Shown in pieces: positions 2,030-42,649 of a stretch of 64,000 bases of DNA (its first letter is position 1; every line of letters starts with the position of its first letter). Both the position numbers and the translations under genes were made by a program. This DNA is from Fidelibacterota bacterium SCGC AAA160-B08 (GTDB lineage Bacteria > Fidelibacterota > Marinisomatia > Marinisomatales > Marinisomataceae), in NCBI GenBank assembly GCA_000402755.1, contig AQSD01000004.1, forward strand, positions 1,366-65,365, in the 5' to 3' direction. The notes under the pieces were generated by a model that saw only the letters and a program-made list of their open reading frames with translations, made no database searches and was not told the DNA's origin.

Positions 2030-2374
2030 ATGGTTCAATTTTTAATAGTAGTACATACATTAGTAAGTTTGTTACTTATCGGGGTAATTTTAATGCAATC
2101 AGGTCAGGGTGGACTAAACTCTATGATGGGTGGTGCCGCTAATTCGATGTTAGGATCTTCTGGCGCAAATGATTTCATTACCAAATTAACAACGTTTCTT
2201 GGGATAACATTCATTGGTTTAGCGTTAGTAATTGGCGCTATAAGCGGAGAATCTCAGTCATCTGGAGAATCTATTATTCAAAAAGATTCTGAATCTAGAC
2301 AAGTAGAATTGGCCGTTCCAAATGAATATGCTTTACCCTCTGAAGATCTTCTGCCAGAAGAAGCTACAAATTAA
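2030..2374 (+). CDS. secG: preprotein translocase subunit SecG
   Basis: 114 aa; N-terminal TM followed by LMQSGQGGL and a second TM. GAGG SD lies 7 nt upstream. The position after tpiA is typical. Confidence 0.85.
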   Translation: MVQFLIVVHTLVSLLLIGVILMQSGQGGLNSMMGGAANSMLGSSGANDFITKLTTFLGITFIGLALVIGAISGESQSSGESIIQKDSESRQVELAVPNEYALPSEDLLPEEATN

Positions 2375-2378
2375 GATA

Positions 2379-2462
2379 GCCGAAGTGGTGGAATTGGTAG
2401 ACACGCTAGCTTGAGGGGTTAGTGGAGGAAACTCTGTGTGGGTTCAAGTCCCGCCTTCGGCA
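2379..2462 (+). tRNA. tRNA-Leu (anticodon GAG), class II with long variable arm
   Basis: Acceptor GCCGAAG/CTTCGGC, anticodon stem CTAGC/GTTAG, loop TTGAGGG, T-loop GGTTCAAGTCC, discriminator A. No CCA is encoded. It starts 4 nt after the secG stop. Confidence 0.9.
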
Positions 2463-2543
2463 CAAAAATAACATTTAGTATTTTTTTAAAAGATTTATAG
2501 ATTACGTGATAATTAAAAAAATGAATACTTTAAAGGCGGTATA

Positions 2544-14403: not shown

Positions 14404-14477
14404 GGCGTCGTACCCAAGTGGTCTAAGGGATCGGTTTGCAAAACCGCTATTCGTCGGTTCGAATCCGACCGACGCCT
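14404..14477 (+). tRNA. tRNA-Cys (anticodon GCA)
   Basis: Acceptor GGCGTCG/CGACGCC, anticodon loop TTGCAAA, T-loop GGTTCGAATCC and discriminator U, the known Cys identity element. Confidence 0.9.
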
Positions 14478-14492
14478 CTTAAAAACTTTGTT

Positions 14493-14581
14493 GCCCGGGT
14501 GGTGAAATTGGTAGACACAAGGGACTTAAAATCCCTCGGAGATTAAACTCCGTGCCGGTTCGAGTCCGGCCCCGGGCACCA
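14493..14581 (+). tRNA. tRNA-Leu (anticodon TAA), class II, CCA encoded
   Basis: Acceptor GCCCGGG/CCCGGGC, anticodon stem AGGGA/TCCCT, loop CTTAAAA, long variable arm, T-loop GGTTCGAGTCC, 3' ACCA. It lies 15 nt after tRNA-Cys. Confidence 0.9.
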
Positions 14582-18093: not shown

Positions 18094-18179
18094 GGAGAGG
18101 TGGCCGAGTGGTTTAAGGCGCACGCTTGGAAAGCGTGTAAGGTTAATAGCTTTCGCAGGTTCGAATCCTGTCCTCTCCG
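18094..18179 (+). tRNA. tRNA-Ser (anticodon GGA), class II
   Basis: Acceptor GGAGAGG/CCTCTCC, anticodon stem CACGC/GCGTG, loop TTGGAAA, long variable arm, T-loop GGTTCGAATCC, discriminator G. Confidence 0.9.
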
Positions 18180-18190
18180 CAAGCATTTAT

Positions 18191-21128: not shown

Positions 21129-21215
21129 GGAGGCGTGGCAGAGCGGTTGAATGCACTAGTCTTGAAAACTAGCAAGGGTGAAAGCCCTTCAGAGGTTCGA
21201 ATCCTCTCGCCTCCG
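21129..21215 (+). tRNA. tRNA-Ser (anticodon TGA), class II
   Basis: Acceptor GGAGGCG/CGCCTCC, anticodon stem CTAGT/ACTAG, loop CTTGAAA, long variable arm, T arm AGAGG-TTCGAAT-CCTCT, discriminator G. Confidence 0.9.
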
Positions 21216-21217
21216 CA

Positions 21218-22624
21218 ATGAATAAGCCTATTGTCAGATTTGCTCCAAGCCCGACAGGGTACCTACATATTGGTGGAGCAAGAACAGCTCTTTTTAATTG
21301 GTTGTACGCTAAGAAAAATGGCGGAAAATTCCTTCTTAGGATTGAAGATACTGATTTAGAAAGATCAAAATCAGAGTATATTGATCAAATTACAGACGCC
21401 TTAAGTTGGTTAGGATTTGATTGGGATGATAATATTGTCCTGCAATCAAATAATAAATCACGTCATCAAGAAGTTATAAATCAAATGATTCAATCAGGAA
21501 CAGCTTATAGGTGTTTCTTGTCAAAAGAAGAGCTAGATGCATTGCGCACAGATTCAGAAAAAAAGAAAGAATTATTTCGAGTTCCAAAAACATATAGAGA
21601 CTATTCGCTGGAGCAACAACAAGTATTGATAGATCAAGGTAAGTCATCTACAGTTCGTTTAAAAATACCGGATGGTATAACCGAATTTACAGACTTGGTA
21701 TATGGAAATATTAAAGTGAATAATAAAGAATTGGATGACTTCATTATTGCAAGATCTGATGGATCTCCAACTTATAATTTTGTTGTAGCTATAGATGACT
21801 CTGATATGAACATTTCTCATGTGATAAGAGGGGATGATCATTTAGCGAATACACCAAAACAAATACTAGTTTATAATGCATTAGGATTGACGTTACCTAC
21901 ATTTGCTCACATGCCTATGATTTTAGGTTCTGATAAGAAAAGATTGAGCAAAAGACATGCAGCTACTAATGTCCAAGAGTATAGAGAAAAAGGATTTACT
22001 GCTACAGCAATGATTAACTACCTTTCTTTATTAGGTTGGAATCCAGATTCAGATCAAGAAATATTCAACGTAGCTGACTTGATAAGTGCTTTTAATTTCA
22101 ATCAAGTTCAGAAAAAGCCAGCTACCTTTGATGAAAAGAAATTATTATGGGTTTCTGGTCAACAGATGGCCACTATGAATACTAAAGTCGCTATAAGTGA
22201 ACTTGAGTCTTTGAGCGATAAATGGGGATTAAATCAAGACCTTAAGTATAAAAATAATGTGGTTGATTTAATCAAAGATAGATCAAAAACATTAAATGAT
22301 TTAATTGAGATTTCAGATGTATTCTTTCAGGACGATATTATATACGATAAAGATATGAGTCTGAAGATACTAGATGAAAGTTCTGTACAAATACTAACAG
22401 ACCTATATGAAGCTTTAAAAATAGAGGAGGGTTGGAAAAAAGATATACTTGAATCTATTTTTGACAATCTAATGACTCAGCATGAATTAGGATTAGGAAA
22501 ACTTATTAAACCAGTACGATTTGCATTAACAGGTCTTGGTTATGGACCCGGAATATTTGATATGATGCTTTTGCTTGGAAAAGATAGATGTTTGCTTCGC
22601 TTATCGGGAGCACTTAAGTTATAG
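21218..22624 (+). CDS. gltX: glutamate--tRNA ligase
   Basis: 468 aa with VRFAPSPTGYLHIGGARTA (HIGH) and KLSKRH (KMSKS). The N-terminus aligns with the canonical GltX start, so ATG 21218 is credible. Confidence 0.95.
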   Translation: MNKPIVRFAPSPTGYLHIGGARTALFNWLYAKKNGGKFLLRIEDTDLERSKSEYIDQITDALSWLGFDWDDNIVLQSNNKSRHQEVINQMIQSGTAYRCFLSKEELDALRTDSEKKKELFRVPKTYRDYSLEQQQVLIDQGKSSTVRLKIPDGITEFTDLVYGNIKVNNKELDDFIIARSDGSPTYNFVVAIDDSDMNISHVIRGDDHLANTPKQILVYNALGLTLPTFAHMPMILGSDKKRLSKRHAATNVQEYREKGFTATAMINYLSLLGWNPDSDQEIFNVADLISAFNFNQVQKKPATFDEKKLLWVSGQQMATMNTKVAISELESLSDKWGLNQDLKYKNNVVDLIKDRSKTLNDLIEISDVFFQDDIIYDKDMSLKILDESSVQILTDLYEALKIEEGWKKDILESIFDNLMTQHELGLGKLIKPVRFALTGLGYGPGIFDMMLLLGKDRCLLRLSGALKL

Positions 22625-22626
22625 CG

Positions 22627-23103
22627 ATGACTCGTTTATTTGTTATATTTTGTTTATCAGTTAATTTATATTCTCAAACTAATTTTCCAAATACTACAGT
22701 ACGTTCAATGGATAATAAAACTATCAATCTCCATAGCTTAACAGCTGAGGTATCGTTTGTTAGTTTTTGGGCAACATGGTGCCTTCCATGTATCAAAGAG
22801 ATTGATAAATTAAATGAATTTATTCACGAATATAGCGATATATCTGTCATATTGATCAATGAAGATAGGCCTGGAGATAAGGCTAAGGTAAAGGGATTCA
22901 TTCGTTCAAAAAAATATCCAATTGATGACAATTATCACGTCGTATTTGATACCAATAGTAAGTTATCTAGACAATTTAATGCTCAGCCAATCCCTCTAAC
23001 TTTGATTGTTAAAAACAATAAGGTTATTTATCGTAAGCGTGGATTCTACCTTGGTGATGAGGTTGAATTGAAAAAACAATTGGATAAAGCGTTGAATGAT
23101 TAA
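22627..23103 (+). CDS. TlpA/ResA-like periplasmic thiol:disulfide oxidoreductase (redoxin fold)
   Basis: 158 aa with a signal peptide, the active site FWATWCLPC, and a cis-Pro region QPIPLTLIV. Confidence 0.8.
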   Translation: MTRLFVIFCLSVNLYSQTNFPNTTVRSMDNKTINLHSLTAEVSFVSFWATWCLPCIKEIDKLNEFIHEYSDISVILINEDRPGDKAKVKGFIRSKKYPIDDNYHVVFDTNSKLSRQFNAQPIPLTLIVKNNKVIYRKRGFYLGDEVELKKQLDKALND

Positions 23104-24811
23104 TAGAGTATTTATTAACATCCTTTTACTTGGATGCGCTTACAGTCAAGGAGTAGCTATTGATACTTCAAATCAAATATCTGCACGATATGGTGATAGC
23201 GATAATGATTATAGTTATAGTGAGATATATCTCAATACAAGACTATCTATTGATCGATCAAATTATCGATTAGAATCAATTTTTACTTTTGAGATAAGCG
23301 ATCCTCCTGAAATTGGATTAAATGAGCAGGGTCTTCGCAATTTCTTAGTTGGAATCTATAATGATAACTTTTCATTGGAAGTCGGTGATGTATACCAAAC
23401 ATGGGGAAGAGGACTTCTTTTAAATCAGTTAGATTATCAGAGCTTAGATTTTGATACAGGTTCAAGGGGTTTGGGTATGCAATTTCGTAATGAATTTAGA
23501 GAGTTGAATATTATCGCTGGGAATACTAGTAGTCGTAAGAGCACAACAGTGTTAGGTGGATACGATCCTAGAATACCTAATTATTTTGTAGAACAATTTA
23601 TTTATGGAGCAGATATTAACTTTAGTCTTGGAGAATCTAATATCGGCGCATCTTTGTTGGCGGTAGATGAAGATGAAAGATCTCTTTCGCATACTTTAAC
23701 CAATCTGCGTATAGATAAACCGTATAAAAATGGTGAGTTTTTTATGTCCGCTATTAATAAGGTTTCTGAAAAAGATGTATATCCATTAGAAATTTTTTAT
23801 CCTAAAAAAGATGGTGGAGGTTTTTACATATCCAACACCAATTACTTAAAAGATTGGGCATTGACTTCGAGTTATCGAAAGTTTTCAATCGATATAAATA
23901 ATCCAGGGAATCGAGATAACATAGTAGATAATTATGGACAAGCATTAGATATTCAACGCTCACCAAGCGGTTTTTATCAGCATACATTTAAATTGCTAAG
24001 TAGAAATTCAAAAGAAGTGAATCTTAATGATGAGATTGGAGTAGAGATCCAATTATTAGGCCCTATTAATCACAATGCTAATATTTCAATTAATTATATG
24101 AAGTCAAGCAGTTCGAAGCAATGGTATAACGGGCAAGGCATACTTATAGGTGAATGGTTTAGCGACAATAATTCTTTTCTACCTTCAAGTAGTCAAAGTT
24201 CGTATCCATTTGAAGAAATATTTATTGAGTTTAGTGGATATAATCCAGGTGGAAATATTTTTTATAAAGTTGGTATAGATTTTCAACAGCAAGTATTTAA
24301 TGTTTTATCTAATTCAGCAGAAGTCAAATCTTTTGAAATAACTGAATCCTTTACAGTTCCATTTTTAGTAAGCGTTGTTGTAAATCCATTATGGAATATT
24401 GAGCTTCAGTTGGAGTTACAAAAACTTAAAACAGGGTTTGATACTACTTTCATATCAGATGTTGATGGAATTGACGACAACTATTCCTTTTATTCACTTT
24501 TGGATGAAGACTATCAAAAAAATCTATTCTTAGCATTGTCAGCAAATTATAATCAAAAATGGTCTTTTAATGTTGCTCATGAATCGACAAATAGCGATGA
24601 ATCTTTGCTCAATAGCGGTCAAAGCAATTCATTTGATAGCTCCAATGAATGGAATGCAATGTCTATGGCATATAAGTTTGATTCTGACCATACGCTTGAA
24701 TTATTTTATGGTTCTATACGCGGCGGGCTTGATTGTACTAATGGCGTATGTCGATATATACAGGCATTTGATGATGGTATAAGAATTGACTACAGCCATA
24801 ATTTAGATTAA
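23096..24811 (+). CDS. hypothetical beta-rich envelope protein (possibly outer membrane; DUF6029-like, tentative)
   Basis: 571 aa with signal peptide LLLGCAYSQG. Alternating Y/N/S/G-rich beta-strand-like composition, and a conserved-looking C-terminal GGLDCTNGVCRY motif. The family name is from memory only. Confidence 0.45.
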   Translation: MINRVFINILLLGCAYSQGVAIDTSNQISARYGDSDNDYSYSEIYLNTRLSIDRSNYRLESIFTFEISDPPEIGLNEQGLRNFLVGIYNDNFSLEVGDVYQTWGRGLLLNQLDYQSLDFDTGSRGLGMQFRNEFRELNIIAGNTSSRKSTTVLGGYDPRIPNYFVEQFIYGADINFSLGESNIGASLLAVDEDERSLSHTLTNLRIDKPYKNGEFFMSAINKVSEKDVYPLEIFYPKKDGGGFYISNTNYLKDWALTSSYRKFSIDINNPGNRDNIVDNYGQALDIQRSPSGFYQHTFKLLSRNSKEVNLNDEIGVEIQLLGPINHNANISINYMKSSSSKQWYNGQGILIGEWFSDNNSFLPSSSQSSYPFEEIFIEFSGYNPGGNIFYKVGIDFQQQVFNVLSNSAEVKSFEITESFTVPFLVSVVVNPLWNIELQLELQKLKTGFDTTFISDVDGIDDNYSFYSLLDEDYQKNLFLALSANYNQKWSFNVAHESTNSDESLLNSGQSNSFDSSNEWNAMSMAYKFDSDHTLELFYGSIRGGLDCTNGVCRYIQAFDDGIRIDYSHNLD

Positions 24812-24858
24812 CTTTGTTAGACTTGTAAAATAATCACTTTCTGGGGAAGGGAAAAATA

Positions 24859-25743
24859 GTGAAAAATTATAAAAAATTTCTAGTATTAAGTATAGTCAGT
24901 TCTATGCTAATTATGTCTTGTTCTAACGGTGGAAGTAGTGTTAATGCTTCAACAGATAGTACTTCAGAGACTGGCGGCAATGACGGTAGCGCAGTTAATG
25001 TTAAATCAAAAGTTTTGATGGAGTTGTTTACTTCAACTACATGCGGACCTTGTTTGCCACAAAATACAAAATTAAACCAATATTTAGATCCTACATCTTC
25101 GGTTTATGCAGAAGATTTAGCAGATGATTGGATTGTATTACGATATCATGTATGGTGGCCATCTGCAGGCGATCCTTACTATGATTGGAATACTGCTCCT
25201 GTAATCAATCGTGAAGCTTATTATGATGTAGGATATGTTCCTCATATGTATACACAAGGATGGACTGATTCGGGTGGTAGTGCACCTACATGGAGAACTA
25301 ATGCAAGAGCAGCTGTTGATGGTGTCTCACCTTTTAATGTTCAATTAACAGGTACAAGAGATGGATATAATATTAGCGGAAATGTCACAGTGGCTTCAGC
25401 TGGAGATGTAAACAATCTTGGATTTAAGCTTTATGTTGCAGTAACGCATGATAATTCACAATACTCAGCACCAAATGGTCAAGTAATATTTGATCAAACA
25501 TTTATTGATTTTTTAACACTTGATAGTTCTTCTGGATCAGTTTCTTATGGAGAGCCATTAAATCTTGGCGTAGGAGAAACTTATACCAAAAGCTATAATT
25601 GGACATTAGATGATAATTGGCCAAACGACTCAAATGTATCTTGGAGTGTAGAAGAATTAACTCTTGTTGCCTTTGTTCAATTTGACGGCACTGGACCTAA
25701 TCAGAAAAAAATATTCCAGGTTGAAGCTCTTAGTTTTGATTAA
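24859..25743 (+). CDS. thioredoxin-fold lipoprotein (Omp28-related-like) with CGPC motif
   Basis: GTG start with a GGAAGGG SD. Lipobox LIMSC. ELFTSTTCGPCLP resembles the Omp28-related EEFTG.WC..CP motif (from memory). Confidence 0.6.
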   Translation: MKNYKKFLVLSIVSSMLIMSCSNGGSSVNASTDSTSETGGNDGSAVNVKSKVLMELFTSTTCGPCLPQNTKLNQYLDPTSSVYAEDLADDWIVLRYHVWWPSAGDPYYDWNTAPVINREAYYDVGYVPHMYTQGWTDSGGSAPTWRTNARAAVDGVSPFNVQLTGTRDGYNISGNVTVASAGDVNNLGFKLYVAVTHDNSQYSAPNGQVIFDQTFIDFLTLDSSSGSVSYGEPLNLGVGETYTKSYNWTLDDNWPNDSNVSWSVEELTLVAFVQFDGTGPNQKKIFQVEALSFD

Positions 25744-25767
25744 TAAGTTTCGGTCTTATTTACATAT

Positions 25768-25841
25768 GCGCCCGTAGCTCAATTGGATAGAGCGTCTGGC
25801 TACGAACCAGGAGGCTGTAGGTTCAAATCCTTCCGGGCGTA
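25768..25841 (+). tRNA. tRNA-Arg (anticodon ACG)
   Basis: Acceptor GCGCCCG/CGGGCGT (G1-U72), D arm GCTC/GAGC, anticodon stem TCTGG/CCAGG, loop CTACGAA, T arm GTAGG-TTCAAAT-CCTTC (one U-U mismatch), discriminator A. Confidence 0.85.
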
Positions 25842-25844
25842 CAC

Positions 25845-26342
25845 ATGTCTATTGAAAATCAATTAGGAGCTGTCTCCCATGAAGATTGGATGCGTCGTGC
25901 TTTAAGCATTGCATCAAAAGGAATGAGAGAAGATGAAGTGCCAATCGGTGCCATCGTTGTCTATAAAGGAAAAATTATAGGTCAAGGTTATAATCAATGT
26001 GAATCTTTAAATGATTCTACTGCTCATGCAGAAATGCTAGCAATTACAGCAGCATCCAACACAATAGGAGATTGGCGATTAACTGATTGCACTCTTTATG
26101 TGACAAAAGAGCCTTGTTCTATGTGTGCAGGAGCGATTATAAATAGTCGTATTGATGCTCTATATTTTGGATGTTATGATGAAGATTTTGGTGCATGCGG
26201 TTCCAAGTTAGATATTTGCGGAAATCCTACCTTTAAAACGCCTAGTGTTGTCAGGGGAAATGTTTTGGGTGGAGACTCACTTGTTTTGATCCAAGATTAT
26301 TTTTTCAAGAAAAGAAAAAAGAAGAAAGATTTAGAGTTTTAG
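25845..26342 (+). CDS. tadA: tRNA-specific adenosine-34 deaminase
   Basis: 165 aa with the CDA-fold zinc motifs TAHAEMLAI and EPCSMCAGAI. Length and N-terminal helix (W.R.AL..A) are typical of TadA. Confidence 0.9.
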   Translation: MSIENQLGAVSHEDWMRRALSIASKGMREDEVPIGAIVVYKGKIIGQGYNQCESLNDSTAHAEMLAITAASNTIGDWRLTDCTLYVTKEPCSMCAGAIINSRIDALYFGCYDEDFGACGSKLDICGNPTFKTPSVVRGNVLGGDSLVLIQDYFFKKRKKKKDLEF

Positions 26343-27107
26343 TTAAAGCAGGTAAGGTAAAATAGCTTTTCTATTTTTCGGATAGTTTTCAAATGTTTTA
26401 TTGTACCATTTATGACCAGCAATAGCTCTTGGAACGAGATTTGCCATAGTCCATATCGCAAATGATAAGCCAGCTAATGACCATGTCATTAAAGCAAACG
26501 CAGTCCATTCCATGATTTCACCTAGATAGTTTGGATATGAGACATATTTATACATAAAACCATGAGGAACATGATAGCCTTCCTTATTAGATCTTAAGCG
26601 TAATAAGGTATTGTCTGATTTAATATTGATAGTGGCGCCTATTAGAAATAGTATGATACCTAATATGAAATTCCATTCATAAACATATTCCAGTGGATAT
26701 GCTTGTATAAAGCCTAAATAGTATCCATTGATAAAGCCATTGACCGTATTGAACATAAGTGCTAAGACAATAACTAAGAGTGGCATTTTAGATGAATTTT
26801 TTTGTCTAATAGGGTAGATAATGCTACGATTAAAATAATGACTTAACCACAGTATAAGAAAAATGTATGATACGATGCTTTTTTCTATAGGTCCAGTTAA
26901 GAAAAGATAGCCAACCATAACAGGTGACATGATTTCCATAGTAAACCATCCTAATTTGCTTGGAATCATAATGAAGAACCAAGAACCCCAATTTGACTTA
27001 GAAAACTTACCGTAAGGTGCAGGTATTTTTAACAAGACAAGAAAGGCTATAAATCCCAATAAGAACCAATAATTTATTCCCGCTTGATAAATTTGTAACA
27101 TCGACAA
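26343..27107 (-). CDS. 3-oxo-5-alpha-steroid 4-dehydrogenase (steroid 5-alpha-reductase) family membrane protein
   Basis: 254 aa, polytopic. The C-terminal HVPHGFMYKYVSYPNYLGEIMEW matches the SRD5A/polyprenol-reductase signature. Confidence 0.75.
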   Translation of the reverse strand: MSMLQIYQAGINYWFLLGFIAFLVLLKIPAPYGKFSKSNWGSWFFIMIPSKLGWFTMEIMSPVMVGYLFLTGPIEKSIVSYIFLILWLSHYFNRSIIYPIRQKNSSKMPLLVIVLALMFNTVNGFINGYYLGFIQAYPLEYVYEWNFILGIILFLIGATINIKSDNTLLRLRSNKEGYHVPHGFMYKYVSYPNYLGEIMEWTAFALMTWSLAGLSFAIWTMANLVPRAIAGHKWYNKTFENYPKNRKAILPYLL

Positions 27108-27145
27108 TAATTTATGGCTAATATTGATTCGTTCAAAGAGCGTTT

Positions 27146-27985
27146 ATGGATAATAAAACAATTATAGTAACAGGTGCAACCGATGGAATAGGTTTAGAGG
27201 CAGCCACTAAGATAGCTGCTCTTGGAAATCGCGTAGGTTTAGTAGGTAGAAATCCAGAAAAAGGCGCAAAAGCAATTGAACGCATTACAAGCTTAACTGG
27301 AAATGATAAGCTTGATTTCTTTCAAGCCGATTTAAGTTCAGTTTCTGAGATCAATAAACTTTCGGAAGAAATTAAAAATAAATATTCTAAGCTAAATGTC
27401 TTGCTCAATAATGCTGGGGGAGCAAGCAAAAATAAAATTATCACTTCGGAAGGACTTGAAAAAACATTTGCAACCAATCAAATGAATTATTTTACACTTA
27501 CTACGAACCTTATGGATATGTTATCAGCATCTGAAGGGTCTAGAGTCGTTAATGTTGCATCTAATGCTCATATTGGTGCAGATATTGATTTTCATAATAT
27601 TAATGGAGAAAAAGGTTATTCTTTTTGGAAGGCATACTGTATCTCAAAACTAATGAATATAATGTTTACATATAGGTTAGCAGAAATACAGAATAAAGTG
27701 ACAGTGAATGCACTGCATCCAGGATTTGTTGATACAAATATAGGAGGTAATGAAGGATCTACTATTAAGAAAATTGTTAAATTTGGATCAAAGCTTTTTG
27801 CGAGAACAGTAGAAAATGGAGCAGATTCAAGTATTTATCTTAGCACTTCAGATGAAGTAAATAATATTTCTGGAAAATATTTTTTTAAATGCAGACAAAT
27901 AAAATCATCAAAAGTATCTTACGATAAAAAACAGTGGGATCAAGTATGGAATTTATGTCAGTCCTATAAGGAGAAACTATCATAA
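27146..27985 (+). CDS. short-chain dehydrogenase/reductase (SDR, retinol-dehydrogenase-like)
   Basis: 279 aa with TGATDGIG, NNAG and the catalytic YCISK. Confidence 0.85.
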   Translation: MDNKTIIVTGATDGIGLEAATKIAALGNRVGLVGRNPEKGAKAIERITSLTGNDKLDFFQADLSSVSEINKLSEEIKNKYSKLNVLLNNAGGASKNKIITSEGLEKTFATNQMNYFTLTTNLMDMLSASEGSRVVNVASNAHIGADIDFHNINGEKGYSFWKAYCISKLMNIMFTYRLAEIQNKVTVNALHPGFVDTNIGGNEGSTIKKIVKFGSKLFARTVENGADSSIYLSTSDEVNNISGKYFFKCRQIKSSKVSYDKKQWDQVWNLCQSYKEKLS

Positions 27986-31666: not shown

Positions 31667-33277
31667 TTGAGTAAAAATTACCAAATTTTAGCACTAAAAT
31701 GGAGACCAAAACATTTTAAGGATGTTGTTGGTCAGAACCATATCACCGAAACATTACAAAAAGCATTCGAAAAGAATCGTATTGCTCAAGCTTTTTTATT
31801 TGCAGGTCCTAGAGGAGTTGGTAAAACAACAACAGCTCGATTGTTGGCCATGTCTTTAAATGGATCAGATACTCCTTCAACAGATTATGATACCGATTCA
31901 GACGCAGTAAAAGAGATCATCGAAGGAAGATCGATGGATGTTATTGAAATTGACGGTGCATCAAATAGAGGTATCGATGAGATACGCGAATTGAGAGAAA
32001 ATATTAAATTCATGCCTTTGTCAGGTAAATTTAAAGTAGTTATTATTGATGAAGTACATATGCTGACAGTTCAAGCATTTAATGCACTACTTAAGACATT
32101 AGAAGAACCGCCTACACATGTAAAATTTATTATGGCTACTACAGATATCCATAAAGTTCCACAGACAATTATTTCTCGATGCCAACGTTTTGACTTCCTA
32201 CCTATGACAAACACTGTTATTAAAGATAGGCTAAAGCATATACTTGAAGTAGAGTCGGTAAAAATTGACGATGCTTCATTGGAATTAATTGCTAGCAAGT
32301 CTGATGGTAGCATGAGAGATGCTTTAGGTTTTTTAGATCAAGTATTAGTGTTTAGTGATAAAAAGATTAGCACAGAGATGGTAATTGATTTGCTTGGTAT
32401 TGTTCCTACAGAAATTTATTTTAATATTACAGATGCTCTCCATAATAAAGATGGAGATAGTCTTATCTTAGCTATCCAAAAAATTAGAGATAAAGGCTAT
32501 ATTATTGAAGATCTTCTAAAGGGGTTAATAGGTCATTTTCGTAATCTTGCTTTGCTTCATTATACGAACGGATTAGGGTTAGCTGGTGTTTCACCGGAAG
32601 TAGCTAAAGCGTATACAAGTATTCGTTATGAATGGACACTGAAAGATATAGTAAGATTATCAACGAATCTGTCAGAATTATATTCATCAATTAAGCAATT
32701 TTCAGATCAATATTTAATTTTTGAAATGACGTTAATCAAGTTGTTACAATTTGATAAGAGCGTAGATATTGAGAAATTTTTAGACTCAAATATTGTTGAA
32801 AGTGCTACGCCTGTAGAGACGATTAAAAAGAGTGCTCCAAAGGCAAAGTCAACACCTAAAGTGGAGACTAATCACAAAGAACTTAAAGTTGAGGTTGAGA
32901 AAAAAGAAGTTAAAGAGGAAAAAAAAGCGAAAAGCAGTCGCTCTAAAATCTCTATAGAAGATGTAAAAAATTCTTGGAGTGAAATTTTAAAAAAAGTATC
33001 TAAGGAAAGAGGCTCTATTGGAGTTTTACTAGAAACATGTATTGTTGGAGATTTGAAAGACGATACTTTAGAGTTAATATCCTATGACAGTAATGAGTTT
33101 AGTCAGAAGCTTCTGAAGGATCCTTTTATTTTATCTACAATAAACTCAGTTCTAAAATCTTCATTGAAGGTGAATATTGTTGTTGATACCAATGTAGCAA
33201 AAATTGAAGAAGACGTAAAAGAAGAAATTAATCAAGATGATATTGTCAAATTATTTGACGGAAAGGATTTTGCCTAA
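31667..33277 (+). CDS. dnaX: DNA polymerase III subunit tau (and possibly gamma)
   Basis: 536 aa, TTG start with an AAGGA SD. YQILALKWRPKHF, Walker A GPRGVGKTT, DEVHML, and SRCQRF sensor motif. Confidence 0.95.
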   Translation: MSKNYQILALKWRPKHFKDVVGQNHITETLQKAFEKNRIAQAFLFAGPRGVGKTTTARLLAMSLNGSDTPSTDYDTDSDAVKEIIEGRSMDVIEIDGASNRGIDEIRELRENIKFMPLSGKFKVVIIDEVHMLTVQAFNALLKTLEEPPTHVKFIMATTDIHKVPQTIISRCQRFDFLPMTNTVIKDRLKHILEVESVKIDDASLELIASKSDGSMRDALGFLDQVLVFSDKKISTEMVIDLLGIVPTEIYFNITDALHNKDGDSLILAIQKIRDKGYIIEDLLKGLIGHFRNLALLHYTNGLGLAGVSPEVAKAYTSIRYEWTLKDIVRLSTNLSELYSSIKQFSDQYLIFEMTLIKLLQFDKSVDIEKFLDSNIVESATPVETIKKSAPKAKSTPKVETNHKELKVEVEKKEVKEEKKAKSSRSKISIEDVKNSWSEILKKVSKERGSIGVLLETCIVGDLKDDTLELISYDSNEFSQKLLKDPFILSTINSVLKSSLKVNIVVDTNVAKIEEDVKEEINQDDIVKLFDGKDFA

Positions 33278-33591
33278 TGTTTGGAAATATGAAAGAAATG
33301 ATGAAACAAGCACAGAATATGAAATCTGAAATGACCAAAGTTAAAAAAGAGCTCGAGAAGATTGAAGTCCAAGGATCCTCTTCTAATGAATCATGTATTG
33401 TTACTATGACAGCTGATATGAAAACTACTAAAGTTGAAATTGAAGAAACATTGCTTAGCAGTGATGCTTATATCATTGAAAATGCAATCAAAGTTGCTGT
33501 TAATAATGCGCTAGAAAAAGCAAAAGATACTTCCGCAAAAAGACTTAAATCTGTAACAGGCGGATTAATGGATAATATTCCAGGAATGTAA
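33277..33591 (+). CDS. ybaB: nucleoid-associated protein YbaB/EbfC
   Basis: 104 aa with MMKQAQ.M......+.EL and the C-terminal GLM..IPGM. The position between dnaX and recR is conserved. Confidence 0.9.
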   Translation: MFGNMKEMMKQAQNMKSEMTKVKKELEKIEVQGSSSNESCIVTMTADMKTTKVEIEETLLSSDAYIIENAIKVAVNNALEKAKDTSAKRLKSVTGGLMDNIPGM

Positions 33592-34190
33592 TGAGTAAAG
33601 TAGTAGTATATATTGACCAATTAGTAGAGGCTTTAACAAAATTTCCCGGAGTAGGTAGAAAGGGAGCTGAGCGTATTGCATATTTTATTGTTCGTTCTAA
33701 TAAGTCCGTTGCAAAAGATTTGATAGTTGGTCTAGATAATATAAGTGAAAAACTATCTAATTGTGATAATTGTGGAATGATTTTCTTGAAAGAGGACGAA
33801 GACTGTAGCTGTAATTCAAATCGAAACGCCTCATGTTTGTGCGTTGTTGAAAACGTTGAAGATGCTGTAAAAATTGAAAATACTAATAGTTATGATGGTT
33901 TGTATCATGTTCTTGGAGGTGCTATATCGCCATTGGATGGCATAGGACCATCCGAGTTATCTTTTGATAAGCTTTTAAATCGTATTGATGACAAATTAGA
34001 AGAAGTTATTATTGCTACCAATCCAAGTACGTCAGGCAATGCAACTGCGATGTATGTAGAAAAAATATTAAAAGATAAAAAAGTGATTATTTCTAGATTA
34101 GCAGTAGGCTTACCTGTTGGTAGTAATCTAGAGTACATAGATGATAAAACAGTAACCACTGCTATTGAAGGAAGGGTAAAGCTCAATTGA
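33591..34190 (+). CDS. recR: recombination protein RecR
   Basis: 199 aa with the HhH LTKFPGVGRKGAERIA, a C4 zinc finger CDNCG...CSC, and the Toprim region VVENVEDA...YHVLGG. Confidence 0.95.
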   Translation: MSKVVVYIDQLVEALTKFPGVGRKGAERIAYFIVRSNKSVAKDLIVGLDNISEKLSNCDNCGMIFLKEDEDCSCNSNRNASCLCVVENVEDAVKIENTNSYDGLYHVLGGAISPLDGIGPSELSFDKLLNRIDDKLEEVIIATNPSTSGNATAMYVEKILKDKKVIISRLAVGLPVGSNLEYIDDKTVTTAIEGRVKLN

Positions 34191-42564: not shown

Positions 42565-42565
42565 G

Positions 42566-42649
42566 TACCGAGAGTCGGGCTCGAACCGACACGAGGAAAC
42601 CCTCACCGGATTTTGAATCCGGCGCGTCTACCAATTCCGCCATCCCGGC
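42566..42649 (-). tRNA. tRNA-Leu (anticodon CAA), class II
   Basis: Reverse complement GCCGGGATGGCGGAATTGGTAGACGC...; anticodon stem CCGGA/TCCGG, loop TTCAAAA, T arm GTCGG-TTCGAGC-CCGAC. The acceptor has two G-U pairs. Confidence 0.85.

Follow-up and report, generated by a model that had tools for sequence, protein, structure and literature searches.

The locus described here lies in a stretch of 64,000 nucleotides (nt) from the genome of Fidelibacterota bacterium SCGC AAA160-B08 (contig AQSD01000004.1 of assembly GCA_000402755.1, positions 1,366 to 65,365 of the forward strand), referred to below as the window. In this stretch the gene of tRNA-Arg(ACG) is located 3 nt upstream of tadA, which encodes the tRNA adenosine(34) deaminase whose essential substrate is this same tRNA. 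The pairing had been pointed out in an initial annotation made from the sequence alone. We present a description of the junction, its conservation in relatives and its distribution among bacteria, and then consider how the two genes might be expressed. The coordinates of the features concerned are collected in Table 1.

The tRNA-Arg(ACG)-tadA junction

ARAGORN identifies a tRNA-Arg at 25768-25842 with the anticodon acg at position 35, and the Rfam tRNA model RF00005 matches 25768-25841 over its full length with 66.4 bits (threshold 29). The two agree on the gene and on the anticodon ACG originally assigned to it. The cloverleaf is canonical, with U33-A34-C35-G36 in the anticodon loop; it contains a U50-U64 mismatch as well as a G1-U72 pair, and the gene does not encode CCA. 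The CUACGAA loop is the same as that of the E. coli tRNA. The discriminator A is found at 25841, at the end of ...CGGGCGTA, and is followed by CAC and then by ATGTCT. The junction therefore reads ...CCTTCCGGGCGTA, the spacer CAC, then ATGTCTATT..., so that the 3-nt gap and the ATG at 25845 noted previously can be read directly in the sequence. The extra base included in the ARAGORN call (25842) corresponds to C74; a C occupies this position in all six CCA-less tRNA genes of the window.

The leader TTTACATAT (25759-25767) is kept across the clade, in contrast to the variable bases that separate it from the upstream stop codon. It may belong to a promoter or act as an RNase P leader; the scan for a consensus sigma-70 promoter gave none there. 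In the minimum free energy fold, ACAU of the leader pairs with AUGU of the tadA start, a candidate for a structure that sequesters the start codon. This pairing includes only 4 base pairs (bp) and we take it as due to chance: the z-score of the fold is -1.6 and the pairing is not kept in two related loci, L028 and L037.

The tadA product carries the zinc and catalytic motifs H61-A-E63 and P90-C91-S-M-C94, from which it had been identified as TadA. This identification holds. The protein passes, marginally, the cutoff of the NCBIfam equivalog 'tRNA adenosine(34) deaminase TadA' (NF008113; 150.4 bits, cutoff 150), with the next-best family, RibD, at only 39.6 bits, and it includes the Pfam domains MafB19-deam (PF14437; 131.7 bits) and dCMP_cyt_deam_1 (PF00383; 103.6 bits). 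The closest structure is that of E. coli TadA (PDB 1z3a, E=2.5e-36, with an alignment from residue 10). Further matches are 3ocq, a putative cytosine/adenosine deaminase (E=2.1e-35), and engineered TadA variants such as 6vpc (E=2.1e-33); 2b3j and 1wwr appear lower in the list.

Many database gene calls for relatives comprise only 145 amino acids (aa) and begin at the equivalent of Met16. This raises the alternative that tadA is expressed on its own, from a promoter inside or upstream of the tRNA, and starts at Met16 (ATG at 25890), the first 15 codons being an untranslated leader. An AGGAG sequence at 25867-25871 could also be taken to favour it. The protein and its reading frame argue otherwise. 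The motif SHEDWM, which spans Met16, is conserved in homologues and aligns with FSHEYWM of E. coli TadA (residues 7-13), the part upstream of Met16, SHEDW, matching residues 8-12. In the 33 different junction sequences obtained from related Marinimicrobia, the W-M codons follow the discriminator at 48 or 51 nt, both multiples of three, an ATG or GTG is always present at +4 (3 nt past the discriminator) and the frame is free of stops up to SHEDWM. The AGGAG was rejected as a Shine-Dalgarno sequence of tadA: it lies 18 nt from Met16, relatives do not keep it, and the only ATG at a suitable distance from it is out of frame. The consensus scan gave no promoter-like site from which tadA could be expressed independently. 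We consider this alternative highly improbable, the internal start itself being ruled out by the conservation of protein and frame. The reading frame cannot begin further upstream because of an in-frame TAG at 25818, inside the tRNA, and Met16 is the sole other candidate start. Conservation of SHEDWM, of the frame and of the start codon at +4 together indicate that the ATG at 25845 is the real start of tadA, and the 145-aa calls are probably truncated annotations.

Table 1. Features of the tRNA-Arg(ACG)-tadA locus and other tRNA-associated genes of the window
Feature	Position	Strand	Remarks
Conserved 5' leader TTTACATAT	25759..25767	+	Directly upstream of tRNA-Arg; U at position -1
tRNA-Arg(ACG) gene	25768..25841	+	74 nt to discriminator A73; anticodon loop CTACGAA; ARAGORN, Rfam RF00005
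Junction CAC	25842..25844	+	C25842 is the encoded C74 of the tRNA; AC are the sole two bases before the start codon
tadA, tRNA adenosine(34) deaminase	25845..26342	+	165 aa; NF008113, PF14437, PF00383, PDB 1z3a
tRNA-Ser(UGA)	21129..21215	+	Preceded by a 95-nt AT-rich gap; 2 nt (CA) to gltX; ARAGORN, Rfam
gltX-like glutamyl-tRNA synthetase gene	21218..22624	+	Pfam tRNA-synt_1c (346 bits) and Anticodon_2; starts 2 nt past tRNA-Ser(UGA)
Redoxin/AhpC-like gene	22627-23103	+	Pfam
DUF6029 gene	23096-24811	+	Pfam
Omp28-like gene	24859-25743	+	Pfam
Steroid-5-alpha-reductase-like gene	26343..27107	-	Convergent; Pfam Steroid_dh (174.7 bits); its stop abuts the tadA stop (0-nt gap)
secG	2030-2374		Follows pgk and tpiA
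tRNA-Leu(GAG)	2379-2463		4 nt after secG
tRNA-Leu(UAA)	14493-14581		Only one of the seven window tRNA genes encoding the full CCA
CCA-less tRNA genes	2379-2463, 14404-14478, 18094-18180, 21129-21216, 25768-25842, 42565-42649		All encode C74
dnaX-ybaB-recR	31667-34190		About 5 kb downstream of tadA

Conservation among Marinimicrobia

A metagenome search with the TadA protein retrieved 80 loci (designated here by L numbers), 48 with a TadA 61-99% identical to that of the window and 32 with a TadA at 52-61%. The window itself matches a 344-kb contig from a marine metagenome (L001) with 94.7% identity and two GTDB representatives labelled Candidatus Neomarinimicrobiota with 80-82%, which places it in the Marinimicrobia (SAR406). 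The adjacency of the two genes is kept in the close relatives: tRNA-Arg(ACG) abuts tadA in 43 of the 48 loci with a TadA of at least 61% identity, and the tRNA sequence is nearly identical in these 43 loci. In 41 of the 43 the spacer is 3 nt long, reads CAC, CAA, CTA or CTC and always begins with C; the two exceptions are 5 nt (L028) and 7 nt (L037).

Upstream of the tRNA these loci carry an Omp28-like gene, gltX together with a remnant or, in a few, unrelated sequence. Since this context differs among loci, the tRNA-Arg-tadA pair appears to persist through rearrangements. The redoxin-like, DUF6029 and Omp28-like genes are absent in L025-L030, and gltX directly precedes tRNA-Arg there. In L027, the 59-nt stretch before the tRNA (2853-2911) retains, as non-coding sequence, a relic of the Omp28-like 3' end (KIYQVEALVFD and two stop codons), which is also present in L025, L026, L029 and L030. 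Either the three genes have been deleted or the stretch has been kept for some other reason, for instance as a promoter or processing signal. In some relatives the order is simply tRNA-Ser, gltX, tRNA-Arg, tadA. Among the 32 more distant loci, six have a tRNA-Ser(CGA) just downstream of tadA.

Distribution across bacteria

The pair was also sought in one genome per bacterial species with a pattern composed of the tRNA-Arg(ACG) D-arm and anticodon loop, 105-135 nt, P-[VI]-G, 60-90 nt and H-A-E. At least 120 loci matched, of which at least 114 are genuine; about 6 chance matches are expected, L161 and L182 are clear false positives and L092 is ambiguous. The record titles of the genuine matches name more than 20 phylum-level groups (here and in the following two paragraphs, counts, ranges and gene orders are those among the matches listed). 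They include Marinimicrobia, KSB1, Calditrichota, Caldisericota, WOR-3, Omnitrophota, Desulfurobacteriaceae, Geobacteraceae, Myxococcota, Acidobacteriota, Elusimicrobiota, Latescibacterota, Planctomycetota, Gemmatimonadota, Poribacteria, Nitrospirae, Bdellovibrionales, Bradymonadales, Melioribacter and Halanaerobiales. An adjacency that recurs in 43 of 48 related loci and at least 114 species-representative genomes is far from what chance would produce. On these comparisons tRNA-Arg(ACG)-tadA is a widespread bacterial synteny and is not peculiar to the window genome. The initial annotation knew of no earlier description of the arrangement, and we likewise found none in the full-text literature, a search whose coverage leaves out most subscription journals.

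A recurrent order is [tRNA-Glu(CUC) or tRNA-Ser(GCU)], tRNA-Arg(ACG), tadA, tRNA-Ser(CGA, GGA or GCU). For the 99 matches which passed a strict filter on the N-terminal motif, the median distance from the discriminator to the first in-frame start is 12 nt; 25 of them have at most 6 nt and 53 at most 12 nt. Of these 99 tRNA genes, 40 encode CCA. Across phyla the spacer ranges from 3 to about 30 nt. In one KSB1 genome ...ACCA is directly followed by ATG, and some genomes have space for a Shine-Dalgarno sequence, with GGAG in Thermovibrio and AGGTG in Frackibacter. The tRNA-Arg(ACG) gene is present as tandem copies in four Myxococcota loci (L139, L153, L172 and L180), the second copy adjoining tadA. 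All four loci have tRNA-Ser(CGA) after tadA, and three of them also tRNA-Ser(GGA).

In other phyla a tRNA-Ser also adjoins tadA at its 3' side, abutting or overlapping it. In Halanaerobium congolense (L198) and Cryosericum hinesii (L133) the tadA stop is located 11-13 nt inside the next tRNA-Ser, and in a Desulfurobacteriaceae genome (L087) the last base of the TAG stop doubles as G1 of the tRNA-Ser. The tadA frame also runs into a downstream tRNA-Ser in about 20 other genome loci. Where the stop lies inside the tRNA-Ser, RNase P cleavage would remove it from the message.

Two of the matches carry labels at odds with their sequence. L124 (PBWZ01000041.1), labelled Chloroflexota, has a junction and a TadA N-terminus of typical Marinimicrobia type, and L162 (JAACEJ010000140.1), labelled Actinomycetota, matches the Calditrichota locus L085 in its junction, TadA N-terminus and flanking tRNAs. 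These may be binning or labelling errors in public metagenome-assembled genomes.

A same-strand unit and the search for signals

From 21129 to 26342 all genes are on the + strand, in the order tRNA-Ser(UGA), gltX-like, redoxin-like, DUF6029, Omp28-like, tRNA-Arg(ACG) and tadA. The map of open reading frames (ORFs) gives gaps of 2, -8, 47 and 24 nt from gltX through the three following genes to tRNA-Arg(ACG). tRNA-Ser(UGA) is likely to be the first gene of this unit, which ends at tadA because the stop codon of a convergent gene abuts the tadA stop.

The claim that the gap between tRNA-Arg(ACG) and tadA leaves no room for a promoter or a Shine-Dalgarno sequence was borne out: besides the gap being only 3 nt long, a consensus scan found no promoter-like site on the + strand from 25374 to 26152. 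Candidate hexamers in the tRNA or in the 24-nt gap upstream of it (TTGATT, TATTTA, TCAAAT) were rejected as mis-spaced or not conserved; the -10-like element inside the tRNA is not conserved, since the T-loop TTCAAAT becomes TTCAAGT or TTCGAGT in relatives. The 25 nt upstream of tadA are tRNA sequence without GGAG, GAGG or AGGA, and hence without a Shine-Dalgarno sequence. No + strand terminator was found between tRNA-Arg(ACG) and tadA, nor any terminator between the tadA stop and that of the convergent gene. Within 24500-27300 there is a single terminator-like match, at 25879-25864; it falls within the 5' part of tadA and is oriented along the minus strand. The two genes thus resemble members of a mixed operon, on the same strand and with neither promoter nor terminator between them, and tadA has the sequence features of a gene with a (near-)leaderless mRNA, with neither a Shine-Dalgarno sequence nor a 5' untranslated region (UTR) ahead of its start codon. 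As there is no room for signals between them, a shared precursor, as first suggested, is a reasonable inference.

Compact junctions, CCA ends and codon usage in the window

The window has a G+C content of 33.7% and a median gap between features of about 7 nt. A Shine-Dalgarno-like motif precedes 18 of its 62 ORFs (about 29%, for a background of 8.7%). The tRNA-Arg-tadA junction is not the only one of its kind: the 2 nt between tRNA-Ser(UGA) and gltX consist of C74 and an A, directly followed by ATG. This second near-zero junction is kept in L025, L027, L028 and L030 (2 nt) and in L037 (1 nt). Thus two ORFs of the window, tadA (3 nt) and gltX (2 nt), are directly flanked by a tRNA gene at their 5' side; there is no tRNA on the 3' side of tadA. 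In addition, secG is closely followed by tRNA-Leu(GAG). Judging from the same pairing in E. coli (secG-leuU), this is an anciently conserved mixed operon. Together, tRNA-Ser(UGA)-gltX and secG-tRNA-Leu(GAG) indicate that mixed tRNA-mRNA units are a normal part of the organisation of this genome. A near-zero spacer and the lack of a Shine-Dalgarno sequence are general in such a compact genome and do not constitute evidence for a mechanism specific to tadA.

Since six of the seven tRNA genes in the window are without CCA, a CCA-adding enzyme must act on their products. CCA-less tRNA genes fit an RNase Z-type 3' pathway, as in B. subtilis.

Codon usage is relevant to the need for TadA. The 25 long ORFs of the window use the arginine codons CGT (85), CGC (33), CGA (55), CGG (0), AGA (248) and AGG (40), so that CGG is absent among 461 arginine codons and CGT, CGC and CGA together account for 37%. 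With CGC and CGA in use and CGG absent, inosine at position 34 (I34) is needed, as the ACG tRNA must become ICG to read CGC and CGA. tRNA-Arg(ICG) is probably the only decoder of the CGN box, and the lack of CGG codons suggests a genome without tRNA-Arg(CCG). Together with established wobble rules, the use of CGC and CGA provides indirect support for the predicted deamination of A34 of tRNA-Arg(ACG) by the window TadA.

A possible expression route

We favour the view, with a probability of roughly 0.6, that tRNA-Arg(ACG) and tadA are consecutive cistrons of a compact, tRNA-punctuated unit, from which the tadA message would be released by tRNA processing and translated in a near-leaderless manner. 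The gene layout argues strongly for co-transcription of tRNA-Arg and tadA, and the co-transcript would probably be a longer unit beginning near tRNA-Ser(UGA). RNase P would cut such a precursor at the 5' end of the tRNA, and a precise endonucleolytic cleavage would take place at the 3' end, at the discriminator or close to it; the CCA-less tRNA-Arg would then be completed by the CCA-adding enzyme. The 3' cut must be precise, as otherwise one precursor could not yield both the tRNA and an intact tadA message: a cut further downstream combined with exonucleolytic trimming would destroy the latter. RNase Z of B. subtilis cuts CCA-less precursors at or next to the discriminator. The released mRNA would carry a 5'-monophosphate and a 0-3-nt leader. 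Its translation would resemble that of a leaderless message and need no Shine-Dalgarno sequence, like that of mitochondrial transcripts punctuated by tRNAs. The unprocessed precursor is a less likely template for initiation, since a 30S subunit bound at the AUG would have to cover sequence that is folded into the acceptor and T arms. It is plausible from the arrangement that the 5' end of the tadA mRNA is created by tRNA processing.

Expressed in this way, the deaminase would be produced only together with its one essential substrate and in amounts proportional to it. Tying enzyme synthesis to substrate synthesis would explain the persistence of the pairing in many phyla. In E. coli, mRNA substrates compete for TadA with the available tRNA-Arg(ACG), and a change in the dosage of this tRNA alters TadA-dependent mRNA editing globally (PMC13170351). 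This competition offers a functional reason for a fixed ratio of enzyme to substrate. A more far-reaching version is that of a deeply conserved unit in which the 3' cut of tRNA-Arg(ACG) itself makes the (near-)leaderless tadA mRNA, each precursor yielding one substrate and one message and thereby setting the TadA:tRNA-Arg ratio, and in which tRNA processing and completion of TadA would compete where the stop is located inside tRNA-Ser. We propose this version tentatively and consider it rather unlikely to hold in full.

Comparison with known systems

In the E. coli thrU-tyrU-glyT-thrT-tufB operon, as at this locus, a translation-related gene directly follows tRNA genes of the same strand and no promoter separates them; release of the products depends on tRNA processing, as we propose for tadA. 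The thrT-tufB spacer is however 114 nt long, compared to 3 nt between tRNA-Arg and tadA, and holds a normal ribosome-binding site. The relation between the products also differs: EF-Tu serves all elongator tRNAs, whereas the essential substrate of TadA is the tRNA encoded just upstream. The secG-leuU pair of E. coli is another ancient association of a protein gene with a tRNA gene, here tRNA-Leu(GAG), with a gap of 14 nt compared to 4 nt in the window. Its presence in both indicates that mixed tRNA-protein units are of a known and conserved kind. In contrast to tRNA-Arg-tadA, the tRNA of this pair is downstream of the ORF, so that the mRNA keeps its own 5' UTR, and there is no enzyme-substrate relation.

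The closest resemblance is to the tRNA punctuation of mitochondria, reportedly described, with its leaderless mRNAs, by Ojala, Montoya and Attardi in 1981. There too, ORFs are located 0-3 nt from tRNA genes and have no Shine-Dalgarno sequence, and the start codon is at or next to the mRNA 5' end, as it would be in the proposed tadA message. The mitochondrial mRNA ends arise by RNase P and RNase Z cleavage, and those of tadA would be made in the same way. The incomplete stop codons of mitochondria also have a parallel in the overlap of the tadA stop with the next tRNA in other phyla. Unlike mitochondria, the host of tadA is a free-living bacterium, tRNAs flank only part of the genes in the unit, and polyadenylation is not known to complete stop codons in it. 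What sets the locus apart from known mixed tRNA-protein operons is the combination of a near-zero spacer, an enzyme encoded behind its own substrate and conservation in many phyla.

Weighing the alternatives

A number of observations weigh against release of a near-leaderless tadA message from a tRNA-punctuated unit. Leaders of even 1-5 nt lower leaderless translation in E. coli, and a 2-3-nt tadA leader may for this reason not behave as leaderless. No promoter of the unit was found upstream of tRNA-Ser(UGA) by the consensus scan. Neither was an RNase Z identified in the window, where two metallo-beta-lactamase-fold proteins score 54.7 and 25 bits for a cutoff of 293. Since the pattern of the species-wide scan admits short spacers only, its at least 114 genuine matches illustrate the breadth of the arrangement and not the fraction of bacteria which carry it. 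Linkage has been lost in most distant Marinimicrobia, where tRNA-Arg is found upstream of tadA in only one of 32 loci (L077). In E. coli, tadA is located between pgpC and mltF, about 120 kb from the serV-argVYZQ cluster that encodes the same substrate tRNA, so that enzyme and substrate are expressed independently there.

The junction itself is moreover a recurrent insertion site, with same-strand insertions of 0.7-0.9 kb exactly between tRNA-Arg and tadA in five close relatives. In L017 an HNH endonuclease gene (113-793; Pfam HNH_5, HNH) takes over the original cacATGTCTAT start, and its 3' end overlaps the start of tadA. L014 (1-81), an independent contig, covers only the final 81 nt of this gene, which looks like a mobile or homing-type insertion. 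The inserts of L020 (406-1075), L032 (2287-2960) and L045 (1724-2439) are zinc-ribbon/TM2-domain genes, accompanied in L020 and L032 by a gene for a membrane protein of about 60 aa. The distant locus L077 has a gene for a 247-aa multi-pass membrane protein (2069-2812) between tRNA-Arg(ACG) and tadA, again on the same strand. Gene order and strand are kept despite the inserts in L017, L032, L045 and L077; the L014 and L020 contigs end before the tRNA. Such tolerance of insertions, together with the loss of linkage in E. coli and in distant Marinimicrobia, implies that strict adjacency is dispensable and that tight coupling is not essential.

These points bear most directly on a serious rival explanation, inherited synteny combined with genome streamlining and without a dedicated function. 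In that case tadA would belong to an ancient tRNA cluster (tRNA-Ser, tRNA-Arg(ACG), tadA, tRNA-Ser) whose spacers were squeezed; the genes would be co-transcribed but the link to the substrate would not have been selected. Tolerated insertions and a linkage lost without apparent cost are what it would lead one to expect, and junctions as tight as that of tadA join functionally unrelated partners in the window, where the overall spacing is equally compact. Among the matches listed, tRNA-Ser is linked to tadA about as often as tRNA-Arg is, a further point against our preferred reading; to our knowledge tRNA-Ser is not a TadA substrate. E. coli, moreover, keeps tRNA-Ser(GCU) with tRNA-Arg(ACG) in serV-argVYZQ, much as tRNA-Ser is linked to tRNA-Arg(ACG) in the wider cluster seen among the scan matches. 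On the other hand, bacterial gene order decays fast, yet this pair persists under more than 20 phylum-level labels while its flanks change. Of some 40 tRNA species, the upstream neighbour is the enzyme's own substrate, and order and strand survive in the insertion-bearing loci. On balance we consider inherited synteny alone to be an unlikely, though far from negligible, explanation. A further proposal is that TadA binds the anticodon arm of tRNA-Arg(ACG) within the tRNA-tadA precursor and modulates the processing or translation of its own message. As known from structures and biochemistry, the anticodon stem-loop by itself is recognised by TadA, and in the precursor it would be about 40 nt upstream of the tadA AUG. 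In phyla with the tadA stop inside the downstream tRNA-Ser, tRNA processing and full translation could compete, and the TadA:tRNA-Arg ratio matters for editing in E. coli (PMC13170351). However, nothing in the sequence requires TadA to bind its precursor. A UACG hairpin mimic within tadA, which might have served for self-editing or TadA binding, was sought and rejected, there being no TACG in the gene, and the 4-bp pairing of leader and start codon is absent from L028 and L037. A precise steric mechanism is also disfavoured by spacers that vary across phyla and by the tolerance of inserted genes. Feedback by TadA on its own precursor, which had been raised at the outset, is thus unsupported and we regard such autoregulation as improbable.

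Implications

The locus provides a clear case of a gene for a tRNA-modifying enzyme which is physically tied to the gene of its single essential substrate, and the occurrence of this tie under more than 20 phylum-level labels among the matches listed points to selection for co-expression. The layout offers a natural system for studying how the TadA:tRNA-Arg ratio is set, a ratio that is reported to govern the extent of mRNA editing in E. coli (PMC13170351). With spacers of 0-6 nt, the implication is that translatable, near-leaderless mRNAs can arise by tRNA processing in free-living bacteria, a mode usually linked to mitochondria. If messages are indeed made by tRNA maturation, this would represent a mitochondria-like punctuation system in free-living bacteria. 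For annotation, it should be kept in mind that gene callers often cut tadA to an internal Met (145 aa), and trouble is to be expected where the gene runs into the following tRNA. These ideas can be tested in cultured organisms that share the layout; the scan matches include strain records of Halanaerobium congolense (L198) and Geomobilimonas luticola (L166).

Finally, the window carries dnaX, ybaB and recR downstream of tadA (Table 1). In B. subtilis, whose tadA is presumably not directly preceded by tRNA-Arg(ACG), the neighbourhood on this side is similar. The order described there is tadA (yaaJ)-scr-dnaX-yaaK-recR (PMC10454642), an order which covers only the genes downstream of yaaJ. The location of tadA near dnaX-recR may be a trace of an old shared neighbourhood.

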